Shown in pieces: positions 415 through 7,400 of a DNA stretch of 35,563 nucleotides. Source of the DNA: a virus; the IMG/VR virus record IMGVR_UViG_3300045988_077109. The stretch is one strand, 5' to 3'. The notes beneath the pieces are model-generated. The model saw only the letters and a program-made list of their open reading frames with translations. It had not been told where the DNA came from and did no database searches. The first letter of the stretch is position 1. Every line of letters begins with the position of its first letter. Position numbers and translations under genes: made by a program.

Positions 415-446
415 GTCTTTTACAAAAATACGAAGGAGAAACATCG

Positions 447-947
447 ATGCCAAAAGAAGTAATTATCTCGCTTATTTCCACTGTTTTAGGGACGGTTGTT
501 GGATGGATTTTAAATTGTTTTTCGCTTAATACGGGGAGAATAGTAATAGAAATTAATGATTTTCATGCAGCTCCGCAAGAATTTGTACATACATATTCAA
601 ATGGTCAGTACACTGAAATAAGAGGGAAAAGGATTATTGCCTCGTTTGAACTATTAGTGACCAATAAAAAACAAACAACGTGTGGGGTTAATAATTGTAA
701 AGTATATCTTGAAAATAAAAATGGGGAAAAACAGTATTTTACAGATTTAACAGAACAAATGGCAGTGTTTTACGATGGTACAGATTTATTAAATATACCA
801 GGGAGAACAACAAAAAGCAAAAAAATAGAGAAAGAACTTATGCTTTGGCGAAAACAGAGTCTAAAAGGGAGTGTGATATGCTTAGAATATAGGATTAATG
901 GGAAAAAGAAAATACATAGATGTATGCTAGGAGAAATGAAAGAGTAG
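447..947 (+). CDS. membrane-anchored protein of unknown function (166 aa), moron
   Basis: Internal ATG 447 of track ORF 405..947, preceded by gaaggag. The N-terminus MPKEVIISLISTVLGTVVGWILNCF is one hydrophobic helix; the rest is Lys/Asn-rich. The coding DNA is very AT-rich (15 G+C in the 60 nt 661..720). No family recognised. Confidence 0.75.
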   Translation: MPKEVIISLISTVLGTVVGWILNCFSLNTGRIVIEINDFHAAPQEFVHTYSNGQYTEIRGKRIIASFELLVTNKKQTTCGVNNCKVYLENKNGEKQYFTDLTEQMAVFYDGTDLLNIPGRTTKSKKIEKELMLWRKQSLKGSVICLEYRINGKKKIHRCMLGEMKE

Positions 948-982
948 AGTCGTGCTTATTAATACGGCTTCTACTCTTTTTA
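941..982 (+). terminator. Rho-independent terminator of the moron gene
   Basis: Stem agagtaga (941..948) pairs with tctactct (970..977), followed by ttttt at 977..981. The stem overlaps stop codon 945..947. Confidence 0.6.
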
Positions 983-1060
983 TATGCAGAAAGGAAAGCA
1001 CATGGAAATCAGAGCGAGGCCGAGAGGTCTTATTTTTGTACGCAAAATTAAGGAGGAAAC

Positions 1061-1138
1061 ATGGAAATTGTAATTGCGTTTGCGGCAGGTGCAATCATAG
1101 AAATTGGAATTATGTGCCTACTACAGATTAACAGATGA
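1061..1138 (+). CDS. possible 25-aa hydrophobic peptide
   Basis: ATG 1061 is 5 nt after the strong SD aaggagg (1050..1056). MEIVIAFAAGAIIEIGIMCLLQINR, TGA 1136..1138. It is too short to be in the track. It could also be the broken 5' end of the next gene. Confidence 0.3.
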   Translation: MEIVIAFAAGAIIEIGIMCLLQINR

Positions 1139-1151
1139 AAGTGAGAACAGA

Positions 1152-1454
1152 ATGAAAGAACTACTTTTTCAGACCTACACGATAGTGCTTCCGATACTAT
1201 TAGGATATATCGTGTGGCTGTTAAAAAATCAGAAGAAAGACAGGGATGCAAACAGCAAAGGTACGATGCTTTTACTTAGAGTCCAGTTGATTGAATACCA
1301 TGATAAGTATATGAGACTTGGCTCAATCCCATCGTATGCTTACGAGAATTTCTGTGAAATGTATAATGCGTATCACAAACTCGGTGGCAATGGAATGATT
1401 ACAAAGATGATGCATGAAATTGAAGAATTGCACCTAAGAGGAAAAGGAGAATAG
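1152..1454 (+). CDS. lysis-module membrane protein (100 aa), function unknown
   Basis: Internal ATG 1152 of track ORF 1104..1454. MKELLFQTYTIVLPILLGYIVWLLKNQKK gives one N-terminal TM helix, followed by a soluble helical part. It lies directly upstream of the holin. Confidence 0.65.
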   Translation: MKELLFQTYTIVLPILLGYIVWLLKNQKKDRDANSKGTMLLLRVQLIEYHDKYMRLGSIPSYAYENFCEMYNAYHKLGGNGMITKMMHEIEELHLRGKGE

Positions 1455-1458
1455 AATC

Positions 1459-1752
1459 ATGGAACAGATTATTAATTATGTGAAACCGGAACTTGTTGTC
1501 GTGGCAGTTGTCCTGTATTTTATCGGAATCGGACTAAAAAAATCTGAAACCGTAGCAGATAAATACATTCCGACAATCCTTGGAGCTGTTGGAGTTGTAA
1601 TTTGCGGAATTTATGTTGTTGCAACTTGCAACCTTAAAGGTACACAAAATATCGCAATGGCAATTTTCACAGCGATTGTTCAGGGTATTCTGGTTGCGGG
1701 ACTTAGCAATTATGTAAACCAGGTGTTTAAACAGTTAAATAAAGCTGAGTAG
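1459..1752 (+). CDS. holin (97 aa, about 3 TM segments)
   Basis: Three hydrophobic stretches (LVVVAVVLYFIGIGL, ILGAVGVVICGIYVVA, IAMAIFTAIVQGILVAGL) and a charged C-terminus. It lies immediately upstream of the endolysin. The pattern resembles Hol44/phage_holin_5-type holins (from memory). Confidence 0.85.
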   Translation: MEQIINYVKPELVVVAVVLYFIGIGLKKSETVADKYIPTILGAVGVVICGIYVVATCNLKGTQNIAMAIFTAIVQGILVAGLSNYVNQVFKQLNKAE

Positions 1753-1781
1753 ATAGAGTAAAGACGGAAAGGAGAGATACT

Positions 1782-3119
1782 ATGGCACATTTATATGTAA
1801 TAGCCGGTCATGGTGCCGGTGATTGCGGAGCAGTAGGATATGGATATACGGAGGCAGAGCGTGTACGTGCGCTCGCTTCCAGATTATCAGCGCTGGGAGG
1901 TAGTAATGTTACTATTGCAGACACAAACCGAAACTGGTATGCCGATAATGGTATTATGAGCTTAAATATTCCGAAAGATTGGCAGATTCTGGAATTACAC
2001 ATGGACAGCGCAGGAGCTTCGGCAAAGGGCGGTCATGTTATCATCAATTCTGCTTATAGCGCAGACCAGTACGACACGGCACTGGCAAGTTTTATCGGCT
2101 CGTTTTTTCCGGGACGTGCAAAAAATATCATTCCAAGAAGCGACCTCGCCAACCCGAACAGGGCTGCCGCAAGAGGATATAGCTATCGACTTCTGGAAAA
2201 TGGCTTTATCACAAATTCTGGCGATCTGAATAAATTTAACAGTCAGATGGATGATCTGGCAAGAGGTATCCTTAATGCATTCGGCATCGCTACGGCATCT
2301 CCGGCAAAAGAGGATTCTGACGGTAAAGTAACAGCTGGTGGAACATCTCAGGACTCCGTACAGCATTACGGTAAGGTATCCTACCAGTCACATATCCGCG
2401 ACATCGGATGGGCGTGCTGGCAGTCTGACGGTCGTATGTCTGGAACTACTGGACAGAACCGGAGAATCGAAGCGTTCCGACTTATTCCTGTCGGAGAAAC
2501 AGACGTAGTAGTGCATATCAAGGATGTAGGCGATAAGGAATACAAGAATATCTCCAAAGGCACAATCCTTGGCACCACAGGACAGAACAAACGTATCGAA
2601 GCAATCAAGATTACCGGAAAAGATACGCCATATATCTACAGAGTTCATCAGAAAAACATCGGATGGACAGATTGGACATTCAATGGATCATGGGCTGGCA
2701 CAAAAGGAAAAGGGCTGCAAATTGAAGCGATTGAGATCATGGCTGCTAAATTCCTTGTCAATCCACACGTCCAGAACAGAGGCTGGTTAGGAGAGAGAGC
2801 TTGCGAGAATATCATTGGTATTACAGGACATAACCTTAGATTAGAAGCATTTAAGATTGATCCGCTTAATATGACAATTAAAGCAAAAGCTCACATTCAG
2901 GGAATTGGTTGGAAAGATTATGGTCAAATTGACAAAAATACTGTAATCGGAACTGTAGGGGAAAATAAAAGAATTGAATGTTTATGTTTCAAAGGTGATT
3001 TTGAATACAGAGTACATATCCAGAACAGCGGCTGGACTGATTGGACAAAAGCTGATGGGGTAGCAACACTCGGAACTGTGGGACAGGCACTAAGAATTGA
3101 AGCGATTCAGTTTAGATAG
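1782..3119 (+). CDS. endolysin: N-acetylmuramoyl-L-alanine amidase (Amidase_3-like) plus six ChW cell-wall-binding repeats
   Basis: N-terminus HLYVIAGHGAGDCGAVGYGYTEAERVRAL...LELHMDS resembles a MurNAc-LAA zinc amidase. The C-terminal half is made of repeats of the form Y-x-x-H-x-x-x-x-GW-x-x-W...GTTGQ-x-x-RIEA, typical of clostridial ChW repeats. Confidence 0.9.
   Translation: MAHLYVIAGHGAGDCGAVGYGYTEAERVRALASRLSALGGSNVTIADTNRNWYADNGIMSLNIPKDWQILELHMDSAGASAKGGHVIINSAYSADQYDTALASFIGSFFPGRAKNIIPRSDLANPNRAAARGYSYRLLENGFITNSGDLNKFNSQMDDLARGILNAFGIATASPAKEDSDGKVTAGGTSQDSVQHYGKVSYQSHIRDIGWACWQSDGRMSGTTGQNRRIEAFRLIPVGETDVVVHIKDVGDKEYKNISKGTILGTTGQNKRIEAIKITGKDTPYIYRVHQKNIGWTDWTFNGSWAGTKGKGLQIEAIEIMAAKFLVNPHVQNRGWLGERACENIIGITGHNLRLEAFKIDPLNMTIKAKAHIQGIGWKDYGQIDKNTVIGTVGENKRIECLCFKGDFEYRVHIQNSGWTDWTKADGVATLGTVGQALRIEAIQFR
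2364..3116 (+). repeat. six tandem ChW-type coding repeats inside the endolysin
   Basis: Repeat cores are SHIRDIGWACW..GTTGQNRRIEAF, (degenerate) GTTGQNKRIEAI, HQKNIGWTDW..GTKGKGLQIEAI, HVQNRGWLGE..GITGHNLRLEAF, HIQGIGWKDY..GTVGENKRIECL and HIQNSGWTDW..GTVGQALRIEAI. Confidence 0.85.
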
Positions 3120-3321: not shown

Positions 3322-4851
3322 TCAGCGAGAAATACGCGGAAAAACGTCTATGGAAAAAGAAGAATGTCGTTGGCCACGGGCGTTTTTCTCTGTTTTTGTA
3401 AAATCTATTCTTTCAATCACATTCTTCAAAGCTGTATTTTTATCTGCAGCATCAAAAGTATCCCATGCATTTAGAAGTTCTTGACATTTAGGGACAAATG
3501 TGGAGCGGTTCTTTTTCGACAAATCGAGACGCACGATATCAGCATTCACAGATTCAATTTTCTTATCAAAATCTTTTATTTTATCTTCCAGAGCAGCAGA
3601 ACGCTCAAAGAAAATCTCTTTTGTATAAATCCCCTGCTCTAATAAATCGAATAAGGATCCCCGTTGCTTCAGAGTTGTTTCCTTTTCTTTTTCCAAATTC
3701 ACAAGAATGGACCGGAGAGATTCTTGCTCGGAATCATCTGTACTTTCAAAATTGTTTACCTTGTAGTCAGCTATGTAGTTGCGGATCCATTCCAGGACAG
3801 CGTTTTCGAGTTCTTCAAGTTCAATAGCTACAGTGGCGCATCCGGCATATTGGCAAATAAGATAATCACGAGGCTGTTTGGAGGACATTTTTTTTCTAAC
3901 CATGACACGCCCGCAACAAGAACACCGGACGATTCCGGCGAACGGGTTCTGAATTCTACAGCTACGTTTTACCGGAGCGGTCATGGAAGAGTTTACAGAG
4001 TTCGCCCGGTAATAGAGATCTTCCGAGATACATCCAGGATGTTTTCCTTTTACTAAAATATAATCATCTGCCTTCGGACGGCTGGTTGCGATTTTTCCAT
4101 TTACAATTGCTTTTTGTGATTTTCGATAATTCCAACGTAACATTCCTATATTTACAGGGTTTGAAATGATTGTTTTTACAGTAGCCGGATTAAAAGGCTT
4201 TCCACTACGAGAAACGATTCCCATGCCGGTTAATGCAGAACAGGTCTTCTGGAATCCGTATTTTTTATTCCCCATAAAATCATACATCAGTTTCAAAACC
4301 GGATTTTCTTTTTCGTCTGGTACGAGCGTAAAATGCTTGCAATCATCCGCTTTTACACGCCTCCAACCGTATGGAGCGATGTTGCCGACATAATATCCGT
4401 CTTTTACAGATCGAATACGCCCAGCCTGCATCCTACGTTTAATAGTGGCATATTCACGCCGGGACATAAAAAGAGAGAACTCGAAGTATTCATTGTCGTT
4501 CTCAATCGCTGGATTATAAGTCTTTCCTGGAGTAACGATCAGAGTGTTGGAGTAGAAGAAAGCTCTCTGAACACGTCCTTGATCAATAGTGTCACCTCTG
4601 GCAAGACGTTCCACTTCCATAACAAGGACACCTTCCCAGATACCGGATTCAACTTCGGATAAAAGGCGGACCATTTCCGGTCTAGCATCGATGCTATCTC
4701 CGGATACGACTTCTCTGTAAATAGCTCCGATCGGAAGGCTTCTGGCACGTGCAAGTTCAAGAAGAGTTTCCTCATGACGTTTCAAAACATCAATTCCGAG
4801 TGCTTCAAGGTCGGAATCTTTTCTGGATTTTCTTAAATAAATTACATACAT
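3322..4851 (-). CDS. int: large serine recombinase (phage integrase), 509 aa
   Basis: N-terminal resolvase-type catalytic domain (YVIYLRKSRKDS...VLVMEVERLARG) and a central recombinase domain. A Cys-rich zinc ribbon follows (VRCSCCGRVMVRKK...LICQYAGC), then a coiled coil. SD aaaggag precedes the start. Confidence 0.93.
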   Translation of the reverse strand: MYVIYLRKSRKDSDLEALGIDVLKRHEETLLELARARSLPIGAIYREVVSGDSIDARPEMVRLLSEVESGIWEGVLVMEVERLARGDTIDQGRVQRAFFYSNTLIVTPGKTYNPAIENDNEYFEFSLFMSRREYATIKRRMQAGRIRSVKDGYYVGNIAPYGWRRVKADDCKHFTLVPDEKENPVLKLMYDFMGNKKYGFQKTCSALTGMGIVSRSGKPFNPATVKTIISNPVNIGMLRWNYRKSQKAIVNGKIATSRPKADDYILVKGKHPGCISEDLYYRANSVNSSMTAPVKRSCRIQNPFAGIVRCSCCGRVMVRKKMSSKQPRDYLICQYAGCATVAIELEELENAVLEWIRNYIADYKVNNFESTDDSEQESLRSILVNLEKEKETTLKQRGSLFDLLEQGIYTKEIFFERSAALEDKIKDFDKKIESVNADIVRLDLSKKNRSTFVPKCQELLNAWDTFDAADKNTALKNVIERIDFTKTEKNARGQRHSSFSIDVFPRISR

Positions 4852-4922
4852 AATGTATCAGCTCCTTTGTATTTTATGAAAAAAAGGGTACAAAAATAAC
4901 AGCCTGAGAACTTTTGTTCTCT

Positions 4923-4951
4923 TGCGTGGCTGCTCCGGAGATGATACAATA
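4923..4951 (+). promoter_or_regulatory. candidate sigma-70 promoter facing the small zinc-ribbon gene
   Basis: TTGCGT (4923..4928), 17-nt spacer, TACAAT (4946..4951), with TG at 4943..4944 (extended -10). It lies in the int / zinc-ribbon divergent intergenic region. Confidence 0.5.
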
Positions 4952-5016
4952 TTATTGCATTTGGGTATCTCTTCGGAGAACTTAATGAGAACAGGAACAG
5001 AGAGTGAGGTGATGGG

Positions 5017-5199
5017 ATGGAATGTCCAAGATGTGGAAGTAAGCAAATTAACGGAAATGCAAATTTCTGTGTAAAATGTGGAGCAAAATTAAGACCTGTG
5101 TGCAACTGTTGGGTATTAAAAAAGGACAACTATACATGCGGTGAAGATAGTTGTCCAGGGTATAGGATGTTGGTTAAACTCGCTAAACAAAAAAATTAA
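5017..5199 (+). CDS. small zinc-ribbon protein (60 aa)
   Basis: MECPRCGSKQINGNANFCVKCGAKL is a classic CPxCG...FCxxCG zinc ribbon, with four more Cys downstream. SD gaggtga is upstream. Confidence 0.65.
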   Translation: MECPRCGSKQINGNANFCVKCGAKLRPVCNCWVLKKDNYTCGEDSCPGYRMLVKLAKQKN

Positions 5200-5672
5200 G
5201 GATAAATTACTTTCTTTGCAGATTCAGTAATGCAATCAACGAGGAGCTGATACAAAGAATCTTTAAGGATTTGTCCAGCTTTTCCTATAGCAGATCGGTA
5301 CTTTGCGGTTGCAATAGGAGTTTCGGGTGTTTCAACAAGCAAATTAGGAATGGCATTTTTAATTATCGATTTCGTATCTGAATCGAGATCTTCATCAAGT
5401 GATAGAAGTTCGATAGCACTATCCAAGATTTTTTGTGTCCATGGATACGGTTTTCCACAATGATAGCAATAGAAAGGTTTTTGATCCAACGGTTCGGGTA
5501 CGAACAGAATATCATACTCGTAATAACTACCATGAATAGGTTTTCCACAAGAAGGACATTTGTCAAAAGCTTTTGAACCGCATTGGGGGCAAAAGGAATA
5601 AGAGAATTTTTCAATATCGCTAGTTATTATATGCCCGTTTTCACAGATTTGAGCTGTAAGAAAGTTTCCCAT
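5196..5672 (-). CDS. DUF2321-like zinc-ribbon protein with a helical C-terminal domain (158 aa)
   Basis: AQICENGHIITS...FCPQCGSKAFDKCPSCGKPIHG...FYCYHCGKPYPWT matches my recollection of the DUF2321/COG4306 pattern. SD aagggag precedes the start. The stop overlaps the convergent gene in the palindrome TTAA (5196..5199). Confidence 0.75.
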   Translation of the reverse strand: MGNFLTAQICENGHIITSDIEKFSYSFCPQCGSKAFDKCPSCGKPIHGSYYEYDILFVPEPLDQKPFYCYHCGKPYPWTQKILDSAIELLSLDEDLDSDTKSIIKNAIPNLLVETPETPIATAKYRSAIGKAGQILKDSLYQLLVDCITESAKKVIYP

Positions 5673-5712
5673 GTGTAACGTATTCTCCCTTCTTTATTAC
5701 TTGGCACGGTAA

Positions 5713-5770
5713 TGCCTGTAGTTAAAGTATAGGAGAATCGGGTGGAAAGAGCAACAGAGAAAAAGTGAGG
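5713..5770. repeat. copy A of the duplicated intergenic promoter module
   Basis: Shares the identical 22-mer gtagttaaagtataggagaatc (5718..5739) and similar flanks with 6605..6662. Confidence 0.85.
5726..5754 (-). promoter_or_regulatory. leftward sigma-70 promoter of the DUF2321-like gene
   Basis: On the minus strand: TTGCTC (5754..5749), 17-nt spacer, TATACT (5731..5726). The same arrangement is conserved in copy B. Confidence 0.6.
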
Positions 5771-5776
5771 AAGGAA

Positions 5777-6058
5777 ATGAAGAAAAGAATTTTAGAAATC
5801 ATGACAGTAACGGTTTTGACTATGTCGGTTTTAAGTGGATGCAAAGGATTCGCTACGACAGAGACGGAGTATGATACAGAATCGAAAGATATAAAATCAA
5901 TGTTTGTTGAAGTAGAAAAAAATAATGATTGGGTGATTGTGTATGACAAAAAAACGAAAGTTATGTATGCAGTATCTGATTATTCGTATGGCAGTGGAGT
6001 GTTCACAGAACTTGTAGATGAAAATGGTCGGCCGAGATTGTGGGAAGGAAAGGAATAA
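5777..6058 (+). CDS. small lipoprotein, DUF6440-like (93 aa)
   Basis: ATG 5777 follows gaggaagg. The signal peptide MKKRILEIMTVTVLTMSVLSGC carries the lipobox LSGC. The mature part VIVYDKKTKVMYAVSDYSYGSGVFTELVDENGRP resembles the DUF6440 pattern as I recall it. Confidence 0.75.
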   Translation: MKKRILEIMTVTVLTMSVLSGCKGFATTETEYDTESKDIKSMFVEVEKNNDWVIVYDKKTKVMYAVSDYSYGSGVFTELVDENGRPRLWEGKE

Positions 6059-6061
6059 AAA

Positions 6062-6256
6062 ATGAACATTTGCGAAGCAACAAAGAAAGCACTGGAAGAA
6101 AACAAGTGTATAAGAGAGAAACCTTATAAGGTAAAAGTAAAACCTATAAAGGGAGATGTCGGGACGATAATGGGACTGGATGGGAGCCATCCTGTTAAAG
6201 GATGGCAGCCAACAGCCAGAGAGTTGATTTCTGAGTCGTGGGAAGTTATGGAATAA
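6062..6256 (+). CDS. short DUF2829-like (Tad2-like) protein (64 aa)
   Basis: MNICEATKKALEENKCIR...GWQPTARELISESWEVME. The N-terminal M-N-x-x-EA-x-x-AL-x-x-x-K and the C-terminal W-x-P-x-x-x-x-L-x-x-x-x-W-E-V fit my recollection of DUF2829. It starts 4 nt after the lipoprotein gene. Confidence 0.6.
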   Translation: MNICEATKKALEENKCIREKPYKVKVKPIKGDVGTIMGLDGSHPVKGWQPTARELISESWEVME

Positions 6257-6569
6257 ATTGAGCCAGAAAATTTACGACATTAAGAAGAGTTTCCTTTTTC
6301 TGGTTTTCCATGGTGACAATGGCTTTATCGGTAAGGGAAGAATCGTAAATAAAATCACTGGCATGATGATTGTCAAGATATCCATTACGACCTAATTCGC
6401 ACATACAATCGTCAACATCGGAAACAGACCAATCAGGGAAAAGCAATTTCTGAACAGGTTCGGATGAATCAAATTCTTTCGAAGCGCTGCGGGAAAGACC
6501 GTTAGAACGGCGTAGACAATATTCTTTGTATAGATGATAAAGAACGGTTTTTGAATCTTTTGTAAGCAT
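6246..6569 (-). CDS. YjcQ-like winged-helix protein (107 aa), candidate repressor
   Basis: I chose the second ATG (6569) because aaaggag lies 7 nt upstream. MLTKDSKTVLYHLYKEY...DDCMCELGRNGYLD...LTDKAIVTMENQ resembles B. subtilis YjcQ (from memory). It sits in the position normally held by cI. Confidence 0.7.
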   Translation of the reverse strand: MLTKDSKTVLYHLYKEYCLRRSNGLSRSASKEFDSSEPVQKLLFPDWSVSDVDDCMCELGRNGYLDNHHASDFIYDSSLTDKAIVTMENQKKETLLNVVNFLAQFIP

Positions 6570-6604
6570 AACGGAGCTCCTTTCTTTGATACTCAGCATG
6601 GCAG

Positions 6605-6662
6605 TGCCGGTAGTTAAAGTATAGGAGAATCTGATGAAAAGGGCAACAGGAAAGAAAGAGGT
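6605..6662. repeat. copy B of the duplicated intergenic promoter module
   Basis: Identical 22-mer at 6610..6631. The flanks match 5713..5770 at roughly three quarters of positions, aligned by eye. Confidence 0.85.
6618..6646 (-). promoter_or_regulatory. leftward sigma-70 promoter of the YjcQ-like gene
   Basis: On the minus strand: TTGCCC (6646..6641), 17-nt spacer, TATACT (6623..6618). Confidence 0.6.
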
Positions 6663-6668
6663 GATGAA

Positions 6669-7400
6669 ATGCAGGAATTGTTGAAAATTAGTTATGAAGC
6701 AGAAAATCCGACTGTTTCAGCAAGAGAGTTGCATGATCAGCTGAATATCGGGACCAAGTTCACAACATGGTTTCAGAGAATGACAGAATATGGATTTTCT
6801 GAAAATACAGACTACAAAACTTGCTACCCAAATTTGGGAAGCGAGAACCACGGTGGACAGAACATGGTTGACTATCAGATATCTGTGGATATGGCAAAAG
6901 AGATTTGTATGATCCAGCGATCACCGGAAGGCAAACAGATTCGCCAATACTTTATAGATCTGGAGAAAGCCTGGAACACACCGGAACAGATTTTCGCTAG
7001 GGCGTTAAAGATGGCAGATAAGACCATCGAAGAGCTGAAGCACAACAATGCACTCCTTTTGGAAGACAATGTCCGGATGAAACCGAAAGAAGTATTTGCG
7101 GATGCGGTAGCAACAAGCCAGAGCACAATCCTGATTGCGGATCTCGCAAAGCTCCTGAAGCAGAATGGCGTGGATACCGGTCCGAAGAGACTCTTTGAGT
7201 GGCTGCGTGCGAATGGTTATCTGATCCGGAGGAAAGGAACAGACTACAATATGCCAACGCAGAAGTCAATGGAGCTGCAGCTGTTCCAGGTAAAAGAGTC
7301 TACGGTAAATAATCCGGATGGATCCGTGAGAATCAATAAAACTACAAAGGTTACAGGCAAAGGTCAGCAATATTTTATCAATAAGTTTTTAAAAGAGTAG
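6669..7400 (+). CDS. ant: phage antirepressor (AntA N-terminal domain plus KilAC C-terminal domain), 243 aa
   Basis: N-terminus SARELHDQLNIGTKFTTWFQRMTEYGF...DMAKEICMIQRSPEGKQIRQYFIDLE is AntA-like. C-terminus FADAVATSQSTILIADLAKLLKQNGVDTGPKRLFEWLRANGYL is KilAC-like. Confidence 0.88.
   Translation: MQELLKISYEAENPTVSARELHDQLNIGTKFTTWFQRMTEYGFSENTDYKTCYPNLGSENHGGQNMVDYQISVDMAKEICMIQRSPEGKQIRQYFIDLEKAWNTPEQIFARALKMADKTIEELKHNNALLLEDNVRMKPKEVFADAVATSQSTILIADLAKLLKQNGVDTGPKRLFEWLRANGYLIRRKGTDYNMPTQKSMELQLFQVKESTVNNPDGSVRINKTTKVTGKGQQYFINKFLKE

Follow-up and report, generated by a model that had tools for sequence, protein, structure and literature searches.

The immI region of phage P22 combines mnt and arc-ant with the antisense sar RNA. 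An opposed transcription unit lies beside the antirepressor gene in the early region and acts antisense to early and ant expression. In coliphages 186 and P2, lytic and lysogenic transcription units are opposed without an intervening terminator, and the activity of one lowers that of the other by transcriptional interference. The prophage-borne type I toxin-antitoxin (TA) systems txpA/RatA, bsrG/SR4 and fst/RNAII are convergent and overlap at their 3' ends without a terminator, and formation of an RNA duplex is expected. An arrangement sharing features with these systems was analyzed in the IMG/VR virus record IMGVR_UViG_3300045988_077109, a stretch of 35,563 nucleotides (the window). It represents essentially the whole genome (~35 kb) of a temperate phage with a Lachnospiraceae-type host. 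Beside the integrase gene, a rightward gene for a 60-aa zinc-ribbon-like protein (the small gene) converges with a leftward gene for a 158-aa protein of the family DUF2321, and the two stop codons overlap. This convergent pair is a widespread cassette of temperate Firmicutes (Bacillota) phages and occurs more often than by chance. The cassette of DUF2321 and a small zinc protein is apparently previously undescribed; neither a description of it nor the partner gene within any family description was found in the searched text.

Conservation of the convergent pair and properties of its proteins

A total of 160 DUF2321-encoding loci, 80 from IMG/VR and 80 from GTDB genomes, were fetched and searched with the small protein. 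The cassette was defined as a small opposite-strand open reading frame (ORF) with CxxC...CxxC or CxCW, the 3' end of which overlaps the 3' end of DUF2321. The window conforms to this definition with a 4-nt overlap, and the same layout is present in 91 related loci. Homologues of the small protein with 37-65% identity were detected by tblastn in ~50 loci, all of them on the strand opposite to DUF2321, immediately 3' of it and with overlapping ends. The 42 unique homologues share the pattern (CxxC)...NFCxxCGxKL...CxCW[VI]...Y.CG...CPGY.L. A hidden Markov model (HMM) of the homologues yielded weaker matches at the same position in 29 more loci, including the phages phiRS7, phi879 and Lj928. A motif scan added 11 further partner loci. 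Partners were assigned to type A (51 loci), which consists of a ribbon and a CxCW..CPGY domain, and to types B (29 loci) and C (11 loci), which have a variable N-terminus and a single C-terminal ribbon, CPxC...NYCxxC. No partner was found in 64 loci, and 8 were without enough flanking sequence.

An opposite-strand small zinc-ribbon ORF accompanies DUF2321 in 70 of the 75 informative IMG/VR loci (93%), in 18 GTDB loci, and in phiRS7, phi879 and Lj928. The pairing spans three partner architectures and several host families and persists in loci whose DUF2321 shares no more than 30-40% identity with the window protein. Loci without a partner are nearly all chromosomal contigs of Acidobacteriota, Planctomycetota, Chloroflexota, archaea and other non-Bacillota. 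As a control, 586 further genes of these loci, each coding for 100 aa or more, were inspected; only 4 have a convergent, end-overlapping CxxC...CxxC ORF. All loci examined show the gene pair in convergent orientation. Of 86 paired loci measured, 85 have overlapping 3' ends (4-174 nt), with modes at 23, 12, 15 and 17 nt; the 4-nt overlap of the window represents the short extreme. For comparison, overlap is seen in 37 of 162 other convergent pairs of these loci, the median gap being +89 nt. The identity matrices of both proteins are correlated (Mantel test, r=0.70), with none of 2000 permutations reaching this value, and the partner type tracks the DUF2321 phylogeny. A first-pass annotation, made from the sequence alone, had proposed to check the co-conservation of the pair in relatives. 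The check does not refute the pair as a unit, for the arrangement is kept across ~90 loci.

At the junction in the window, the shared TTAA carries the TAA of the small gene at 5197-5199 on the + strand, and the stop of DUF2321 is the complement of 5196-5198 on the - strand. The two ORFs of 60 and 158 aa with their common stop palindrome are thus as first described. The further statement that no terminator lies between them agrees with a simple scan of 4700-6800, which listed no terminator-like site on either strand. The junction folds no better than shuffled sequence (z -0.85 to +0.86). Neither a terminator nor a structured RNA was thus found at this place.

The small ORF might be a chance reading frame opposite the 3' flank of DUF2321, an explanation so improbable as to be negligible. 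A first, word-indexed search with the 60-aa protein gave only two relatives, both with altered ends, and the GenBank entries of phiRS7, phi879 and Lj928 carry no annotation of the ORF. A chance origin is contradicted by the 42 unique homologues with their invariant Cys, Asn, Phe, Lys and Trp positions, and by a profile search that recovered at least 143 database clusters, the named ones as 'hypothetical' or 'zinc-ribbon domain-containing'. It is contradicted as well by a good Shine-Dalgarno sequence, by an AlphaFold2 (AF2) model with a predicted local distance difference test score (pLDDT) of 89, and by PGAP and other gene callers, which do call the ORF in several genomes. A spurious 60-aa ORF was refuted by this family-level conservation in tblastn and HMM searches of the fetched loci. 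Unannotated small zinc-ribbon ORFs overlapping the 3' end of DUF2321 are located in GenBank/RefSeq records at 4464-4640 (-) in L001, 4461-4634 (-) in L002 and 4427-4597 (-) in L003. This set comprises the Staphylococcus phages phiRS7 and phi879 and the Lactobacillus prophage Lj928 and marks an annotation gap.

The 158-aa protein is a full-length DUF2321 member. It matches PF10083 with 152.4 bits (cut-off 24; E 9.9e-45), residues 5-156 aligning to profile positions 3-157 of 157, and the earlier assignment as a DUF2321-like multi-zinc-ribbon protein was thereby verified. The match to phrog_16447 has an E value of 7.5e-52. The family comprises 2,754 clusters at 50% identity. The metal ligands of the N-terminal two-zinc region, C10, H14, C28, C31, C39, C42, C69 and C72, and the YPWT motif (Y76, P77, W78, T79) are invariant in 21 sequences including the window protein, which shows the family pattern of C-x3-H, three CxxC motifs and YPWT. 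No conserved acidic or histidine residues suggesting catalysis were found in the 21-sequence alignment. The AF2 model (pLDDT 73) consists of strands in residues 1-52 and helices in residues 77-156, and the C-terminal domain is acidic and has four helices. The protein is acidic and soluble-looking, with an isoelectric point (pI) of 5.1 in the window and 5.8 for the family.

The 60-aa protein is basic and Cys-rich, with a pI of 9.2 (family median 8.9-10). Its N-terminal ribbon, C3xxC6...C18xxC21, is followed by the core C29-x-C31-W...Y39-x-C41...C46-P-G-Y. Invariant residues are N16, F17, K24, C29, C31, C41 and C46. Both relevant Pfam scores are below the cut-offs, for PF13240 (Zn_Ribbon_1) with 23.3 vs 25 bits and for PF12773 (DZR) with 17.1 vs 27.3 bits. 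Among 28 relatives, 20 match zinc-ribbon models at E<0.01. The original designation as a zinc-ribbon protein holds for the ribbon signatures, but the score remains just below the PF13240 cut-off; the protein is best called zinc-ribbon-like, and its C-terminal CxCW..CPGY half has no Pfam model.

Searches beyond the family assignments gave little. The AF2 models of both proteins were compared with PDB and BFVD using Foldseek, and nothing better than E 0.1 was obtained; the best matches were generic zinc ribbons of TniQ and NrdR. A structural analogue of the helical C-terminal domain of DUF2321, for which the first-pass annotation had suggested a structure search, did not emerge from either database. 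A sequence search of PDB gave no match, PADLOC-DB v2 no match at E<=0.1 for either protein or for three neighbouring genes, and NCBIfam and Rfam no informative match. The literature searched for DUF2321, PF10083, COG4306 and Lj928 transcription contained nothing relevant and no assigned function. No hydrophobic segment is present in either protein, and nuclease, kinase and pore motifs were not found. The N-terminal extensions of longer DUF2321 proteins carry no Pfam domain except for one borderline HEAT-repeat match just below the cut-off. The 116 proteins neighbouring partnerless chromosomal DUF2321 genes share no family. Paralogy between the small protein and the N-terminus of DUF2321 was considered and rejected: an 18-column ribbon match (hhalign probability 64%) is too generic for mimicry.

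Operon position, mosaic structure and possible role

Neighbouring proteins were clustered, and their strand was scored relative to DUF2321. Tyrosine integrases (19/20) and ImmA (27/27) are encoded on the DUF2321 strand, 46 of 47 together, which is the orientation expected of a lysogen-expressed gene, as first proposed. The small-gene strand carries Ant/BRO (21/21), DUF739-cro (14/14), Rep (16/16) and SSB (10/10). The window fits this rule, with int and DUF2321 on the - strand and the small gene, Ant and Rep on the + strand. Independent gene calls in four partner families gave the order int<ImmA<cI, cro>(ant)>small gene>, <DUF2321 in 12 of 12 places, each with early and replication genes after DUF2321 and an overlap of 12 or 17 nt. 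An element of L. paracasei annotated in RefSeq (L178) has the identical map. A random cassette orientation, apparent from crude gene calls, was dropped after the cluster counts and independent calls had given the strict rule; the impression arose because of spurious antisense ORFs in the crude calls.

Among 48 unique cases, the co-directional gene directly 5' of the small gene encodes a Cro-type helix-turn-helix (HTH) protein at least 17 times and an antirepressor ~10 times. Usually, the small gene is the second or third gene after cro or ant. A co-directional ORF ends <=80 nt upstream of the small gene in 55 of 86 loci and upstream of DUF2321 in 22 of 86. The first-pass annotation had placed the pair between int and the immunity genes. 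This is correct only for the window; in the family, the cassette normally lies directly after cro or the antirepressor in the immediate-early operon. The small gene of the window is not directly 3' of cro or ant. It is preceded by the divergent int, and the window copy is therefore regarded as displaced.

Terminator-like sites past the small-gene stop, read on the small-gene strand, occur in 8 of 75 loci, while 11.2 were expected. Since such sites are not enriched inside DUF2321, small-gene transcription would read antisense through it, and the earlier claim of antisense transcription into the partner gains support. DUF2321 is embedded antisense in the immediate-early operon, its 3' end almost always overlapping the small zinc-protein gene and normally without a terminator. 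Lacking this, an early transcript would read antisense across the whole of DUF2321, and a DUF2321 transcript would extend antisense into the small gene. Judged from gene order, the small gene is an immediate-early operon gene, and the early transcript must cross DUF2321 antisense in order to reach the downstream early genes.

DUF2321 is probably a lysogeny-direction gene with its own promoter. Promoter-like hexamers upstream of it are modestly enriched across the family (8.22 vs 7.67 in shuffles, p=2e-4); upstream of the small gene, no enrichment over shuffles was detected across the family. In the window, the hexamers TTGCGT-17-TACAAT before the small gene had been rated a good promoter. They are present and agree with the consensus in 8 of 12 positions (3/6 and 5/6), which is under the scan threshold and close to the best shuffled match (~7.7), so that this rating was not sustained. 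They fall outside the block that travels with the gene pair. The left edge of this block lies just before the small-gene Shine-Dalgarno sequence, and the hexamers therefore belong to an int-proximal element. The hexamers TTGCTC-17-TATACT upstream of DUF2321 are no stronger, likewise with 8/12 matches.

The explanation favoured here, tentatively and with somewhat less than even confidence, is reciprocal antisense-coupled expression of the two genes combined with an early protein antagonist of the lysogeny-direction DUF2321. In the lysogen, DUF2321 would be made from its own weak promoter, and its transcript would oppose leaky early transcription. Upon induction or infection, strong early transcription would silence DUF2321 by transcriptional interference or RNA duplex formation and would simultaneously yield the small basic zinc protein. 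As a weaker inference, this protein would bind and neutralize the acidic DUF2321 made earlier. DUF2321 may be a non-enzymatic zinc-ribbon and helical binding protein, acting in the lysogen against phage lytic development in an exclusion or immunity-type accessory function.

Natural variants define the borders of the cassette. Sibling genomes of the window are L004 (35,343 bp) and L007 (35,201 bp). Window positions 4998-5785 are 97% identical to L007 3888-4675, and the flanks differ. L007 carries a 2.7-kb segment between int and the small gene, the products of which are a 120-aa cI-like HTH protein, an 88-aa Cro-like HTH protein, a 288-aa protein resembling ion channels and one further protein of 230 aa; its Ant gene follows directly after DUF2321. 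The cI-like gene is divergent from the small gene. By this comparison, the window cassette is joined to the int-proximal region and parted from its usual cI/cro neighbours. In L004, 415 bp have been lost between two 16-nt direct repeats, which removed DUF2321 codons 1 to ~117 together with the promoter and upstream region. The small ORF of L004 has a new start, is without the first CxxC and has lost its stop by a 1-nt deletion; all invariant core residues are kept. In L005 and L006, the small gene is reduced to its first 43 codons (98% identical in nucleotide sequence), which continue into a different tail; this remnant lies between a cro-like gene and Ant, and DUF2321 is absent. The L004 deletion and the loss in L005/L006 indicate that the cassette is dispensable and turns over among close relatives. 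Together with its shape as a discrete mosaic block and the occurrence of alternative lysogeny-direction genes in its slot, they characterize the cassette as accessory. A relative of the window DUF2321, P0003, is a 185-aa read-through variant, in which a frameshift at the stop adds 27 aa antisense into the small gene. The overlap length is therefore labile even among near-identical phages.

Operon position and turnover both bear on a rather unlikely alternative, in which the pair belongs to the phage's own lysis-lysogeny circuitry. DUF2321 or its leftward transcript would damp cro/ant, and the small protein would be a CII- or Cro-like regulator of that promoter; the DUF2321 transcript may even continue into cI, in the manner of lambda PRE or P22 sar. 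This would account for a cassette that follows immediately upon cro or ant at the beginning of the early operon, and for the 'cro position' of the small gene in L007, divergent from the cI-like gene. Both proteins resemble binding proteins and not enzymes, no defence model of PADLOC was matched, and DUF2321 is co-oriented with cI, so that read-through would be sense for cI. Presence and absence among close relatives, however, are unusual for a core switch component. DUF2321 is also found in non-phage chromosomal contexts of many phyla, and no cI/cro adjoins the pair in this window.

In the reverse test, DUF2321 was present in 23 of 54 IMG/VR loci found by the small-protein profile and absent in 31. 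Small genes without DUF2321 occur in two layouts. They lie in an all-co-directional operon, or they are followed, across a gap of +47 or +56 nt, by a non-overlapping gene for an unrelated lysogeny-direction protein (162 or 190 aa). These alternative slot proteins, L181 2246-2734 (-) and L214 3222-3794 (-), have an N-terminal hydrophobic segment and no Pfam match. The phage L214, with a small gene and without DUF2321, encodes at 415-1692 (-) a DUF4041 and T5orf172/MUG113 protein beside a LexA-like (S24 + HTH) repressor. The dependence is one-sided: phage DUF2321 almost always has a partner, and the partner is often without DUF2321. Such a pattern would be expected if the small protein were the protective or antagonist component of the favoured scheme. 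Partnerless DUF2321 genes are common in non-Firmicutes chromosomes, where the neighbours are unrelated, mostly co-directional housekeeping genes. On plasmids, DUF2321 is rare (12 of 72,556 records).

One-sided occurrence might also arise without any coupling of the proteins. The small gene would be a common immediate-early gene, its 3' site a hotspot for lysogeny-direction accessory genes (morons) with DUF2321 as one cargo, and the overlap a matter of compaction. The many small-gene loci without DUF2321, the unrelated proteins in the same convergent slot of some phages and the all-co-directional operons elsewhere are in line with this explanation. It is nevertheless unlikely, as it leaves unexplained the 93% pairing across three partner architectures and several host families, as well as the co-divergence of both proteins. 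Moreover, the alternative cargo genes are separated from the small gene by gaps, yet DUF2321 overlaps it in nearly every locus measured.

A mutually interfering two-gene module, either toxin/antidote-like or a switch, had been proposed at first. The conserved architecture speaks for such a module; the toxin/antidote form has little support, as the genes occur singly and nothing toxin-like was found. DUF2321 exists alone in many chromosomes, is rare on plasmids, has no PADLOC match and no enzyme-like residues, and the majority of the profile-detected small genes are without it. The module may be a switch. A classical TA or abortive-infection addiction module with a type-I-like antisense layer is accordingly improbable. 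Such a module could be recognized in a co-inherited two-gene cassette of sporadic presence, the pairing of a basic and an acidic protein recalls type II systems, and txpA/RatA, bsrG/SR4 and other type I systems of Bacillota prophages typically show a convergent layout with overlapping 3' ends. Each gene is found alone in nature, however, and the two are neither co-directional nor co-transcribed as in type II systems. Neither protein is a small hydrophobic peptide like a type I toxin. Both strands encode proteins conserved in amino acid sequence, where a type I antitoxin would be a non-coding RNA. The near absence from plasmids, the negative PADLOC result and the lack of nuclease, kinase and pore motifs also disagree with this explanation.

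Several observations weigh against antisense coupling with a protein antagonist, the explanation preferred here. At least two partner architectures exist, the mutual homology of which is weak (HMM E 1e-5 to 0.8). All statements on transcription derive from gene order and sequence scans, and the promoter evidence is weak, both for the hexamers in the window and for the modest enrichment in the family. A terminator-like site follows the DUF2321 stop in 19 of 75 loci (25%) against 9.8 expected; hence the reach of the leftward transcript varies. In the searches made, DUF2321 displayed no effector-like domain, PADLOC match or structural analogue, and its exclusion role is therefore only a guess from position and orientation. 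Partnerless DUF2321 in ordinary chromosomal contexts implies that the protein is not intrinsically harmful. The protein-level antagonism and the exclusion or immunity role of DUF2321 are thus to be read as inferred. It is doubtful that the cassette constitutes a new kind of immunity module, in which a zinc protein of the lysogen blocks lytic growth and is countered by antisense read-through and an early protein antagonist. If true, control at the RNA level (type I-like) and at the protein level (type II-like) would be combined in the lysis-lysogeny switch of many Bacillota phages.

Features of the window and its neighbouring genes

The features of the window are compiled in Table 1. Rep (+ strand), ParB_N and DUF4317 genes follow Ant, and the structural genes are located thereafter. 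Three extra genes (5786-6576) separate the cassette from Ant. No cI-type HTH repressor is encoded near int or Ant in the window (4852-6668) or in L004; the region compared in L007 was 4676-7341. In the window lineage, a leftward phrog_750 gene, divergent from Ant, may serve as repressor. L005 and L006 share the small-gene Shine-Dalgarno sequence TGAGGTG, which lies where the conserved block has its left edge.

Table 1. Coordinates of features in the window.
Feature	Position	Strand	Description	Basis
Holin and ChW amidase	1459-3119
Serine integrase (int)	3322-4851	-
Hairpin (4932-4900) followed by UUAUUUUUG (U-tract)	4880..4932	-	terminator-like, just before int
Hexamers TTGCGT-17-TACAAT	4922..4950	+	TTGCGT 4922-4927, TACAAT 4945-4950; outside cassette
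Cassette as mosaic unit	4998..5785		small-gene ribosome-binding site and coding sequence, DUF2321 coding sequence and upstream region	comparison with L007
Shine-Dalgarno-like TGAGGTG	5005..5011	+	5 nt 5' of small-gene ATG
Small two-zinc protein gene (60 aa)	5017..5199	+		ORF call; homologues at same convergent position
Shared-stop TTAA, 4-nt 3' overlap	5196..5199	both		read from sequence
DUF2321 gene (158 aa)	5196..5672	-		PF10083 and phrog_16447 matches
Direct repeat ATAGGAGttTCGGGTG	5314..5329		left end of L004 deletion	alignment
Shine-Dalgarno-like GGGAG	5685..5689	-	5' of DUF2321 ATG
Putative DUF2321 promoter TTGCTC-17-TATACT	5726..5754 (read 5754-5726)	-	8/12 match; inside cassette
Direct repeat ATAGGAGaaTCGGGTG	5729..5744		right end of 415-bp L004 deletion	alignment; second repeat copy
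Ant gene	6669-7400	+

A non-coding element of ~80 nt (window 4881-4962) lies by the start of int. Phages of R. gnavus and Roseburia phage Jekyll, all without a small zinc-ribbon gene, keep it next to int with 77-81% identity. In phiRg519T2, the one phage checked, the gene to the right of the element is on the other strand. The - strand hairpin at 4932-4900 has a folding energy of -15.4 kcal/mol (z -2.6), a value reached by 2 of 200 shuffles, and the + strand fold of the element is not significant. Because its stem has an internal loop, the hairpin was not listed by the simple terminator scan. Together with UUAUUUUUG, it is a plausible stop, before int, for leftward transcripts that have passed DUF2321 and run antisense to the small gene. 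The element may be an int-insulating terminator, a conserved promoter, or part of attP.

Immediately beside the first pair lies another one, at 6062-6256 (+) and 6246-6599 (-), that is convergent as well and overlaps at its ends by 11 nt. The rightward product (64 aa) belongs to phrog_643, 'transcriptional regulator', and has a weak Tad2-like PF11195 match (E 0.006) below the cut-off; the leftward product (117 aa) belongs to phrog_750. This layout is repeated in L004. A DUF2513 protein takes the place of phrog_750 in L005, again with an 11-nt overlap. At 5765-6058 (+), the window encodes a DUF6440-like protein (E 1.8e-5, just below the cut-off), which is absent from L007. Its signal-peptide-like N-terminus and LSGC lipobox suggest that it is probably a prophage lipoprotein.

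Comparison with known systems

With respect to Pfam DUF2321 (PF10083) and phrog_16447, the 158-aa protein of the window is a typical full-length member, and the convergent partner does not appear in the family descriptions found. The cassette provides the first reproducible genomic rule for DUF2321: in temperate Bacillota phages, the gene is accompanied by a small, overlapping, convergent zinc-protein gene in the early/lysogeny region. The rule yields a testable hypothesis, namely reciprocal antisense-coupled expression with a protein antagonist. Tractable models are Lj928 in L. johnsonii, the staphylococcal phages phiRS7 and phi879, and clostridial prophages. It also exposes a systematic annotation gap: none of the three cultured phages has the partner ORF in its GenBank record. 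Should the proteins control superinfection or induction, the cassette would be a compact new module for phage-phage conflict and switch control in gut Firmicutes.

The lysogen-expressed exclusion genes of lambda and P22 with their self-immunity partners, for instance sieB-esc and rexAB, resemble the cassette in that a lysogen-oriented accessory gene lies in the early region and a phage factor could spare the phage's own lytic growth. The cassette differs from them by the lack of sequence or fold similarity and of a membrane segment in DUF2321, for which exclusion activity is hypothesized. Compared with immI of P22, the opposing unit encodes a conserved 158-aa zinc protein, whereas sar is a short non-coding RNA. 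Furthermore, the region targeted in the cassette itself codes for a small conserved zinc protein, and it is two coding genes that overlap, at their 3' ends. In coliphage 186, tens of bases separate the promoters, and the cI and apl operons overlap at their 5' ends. In the cassette, two complete genes lie between the promoters, and the 3' ends overlap. Type I TA systems consist of a small hydrophobic peptide as toxin and a non-coding RNA as antitoxin; both partners of the cassette are conserved soluble zinc proteins, each able to occur alone. The Listeria excludon shares with the cassette a long transcript that is both the mRNA of downstream genes and antisense to an embedded opposite gene. Excludons are chromosomal loci of unrelated gene content, whereas the embedded gene of the cassette has a co-evolving partner immediately upstream in the operon.

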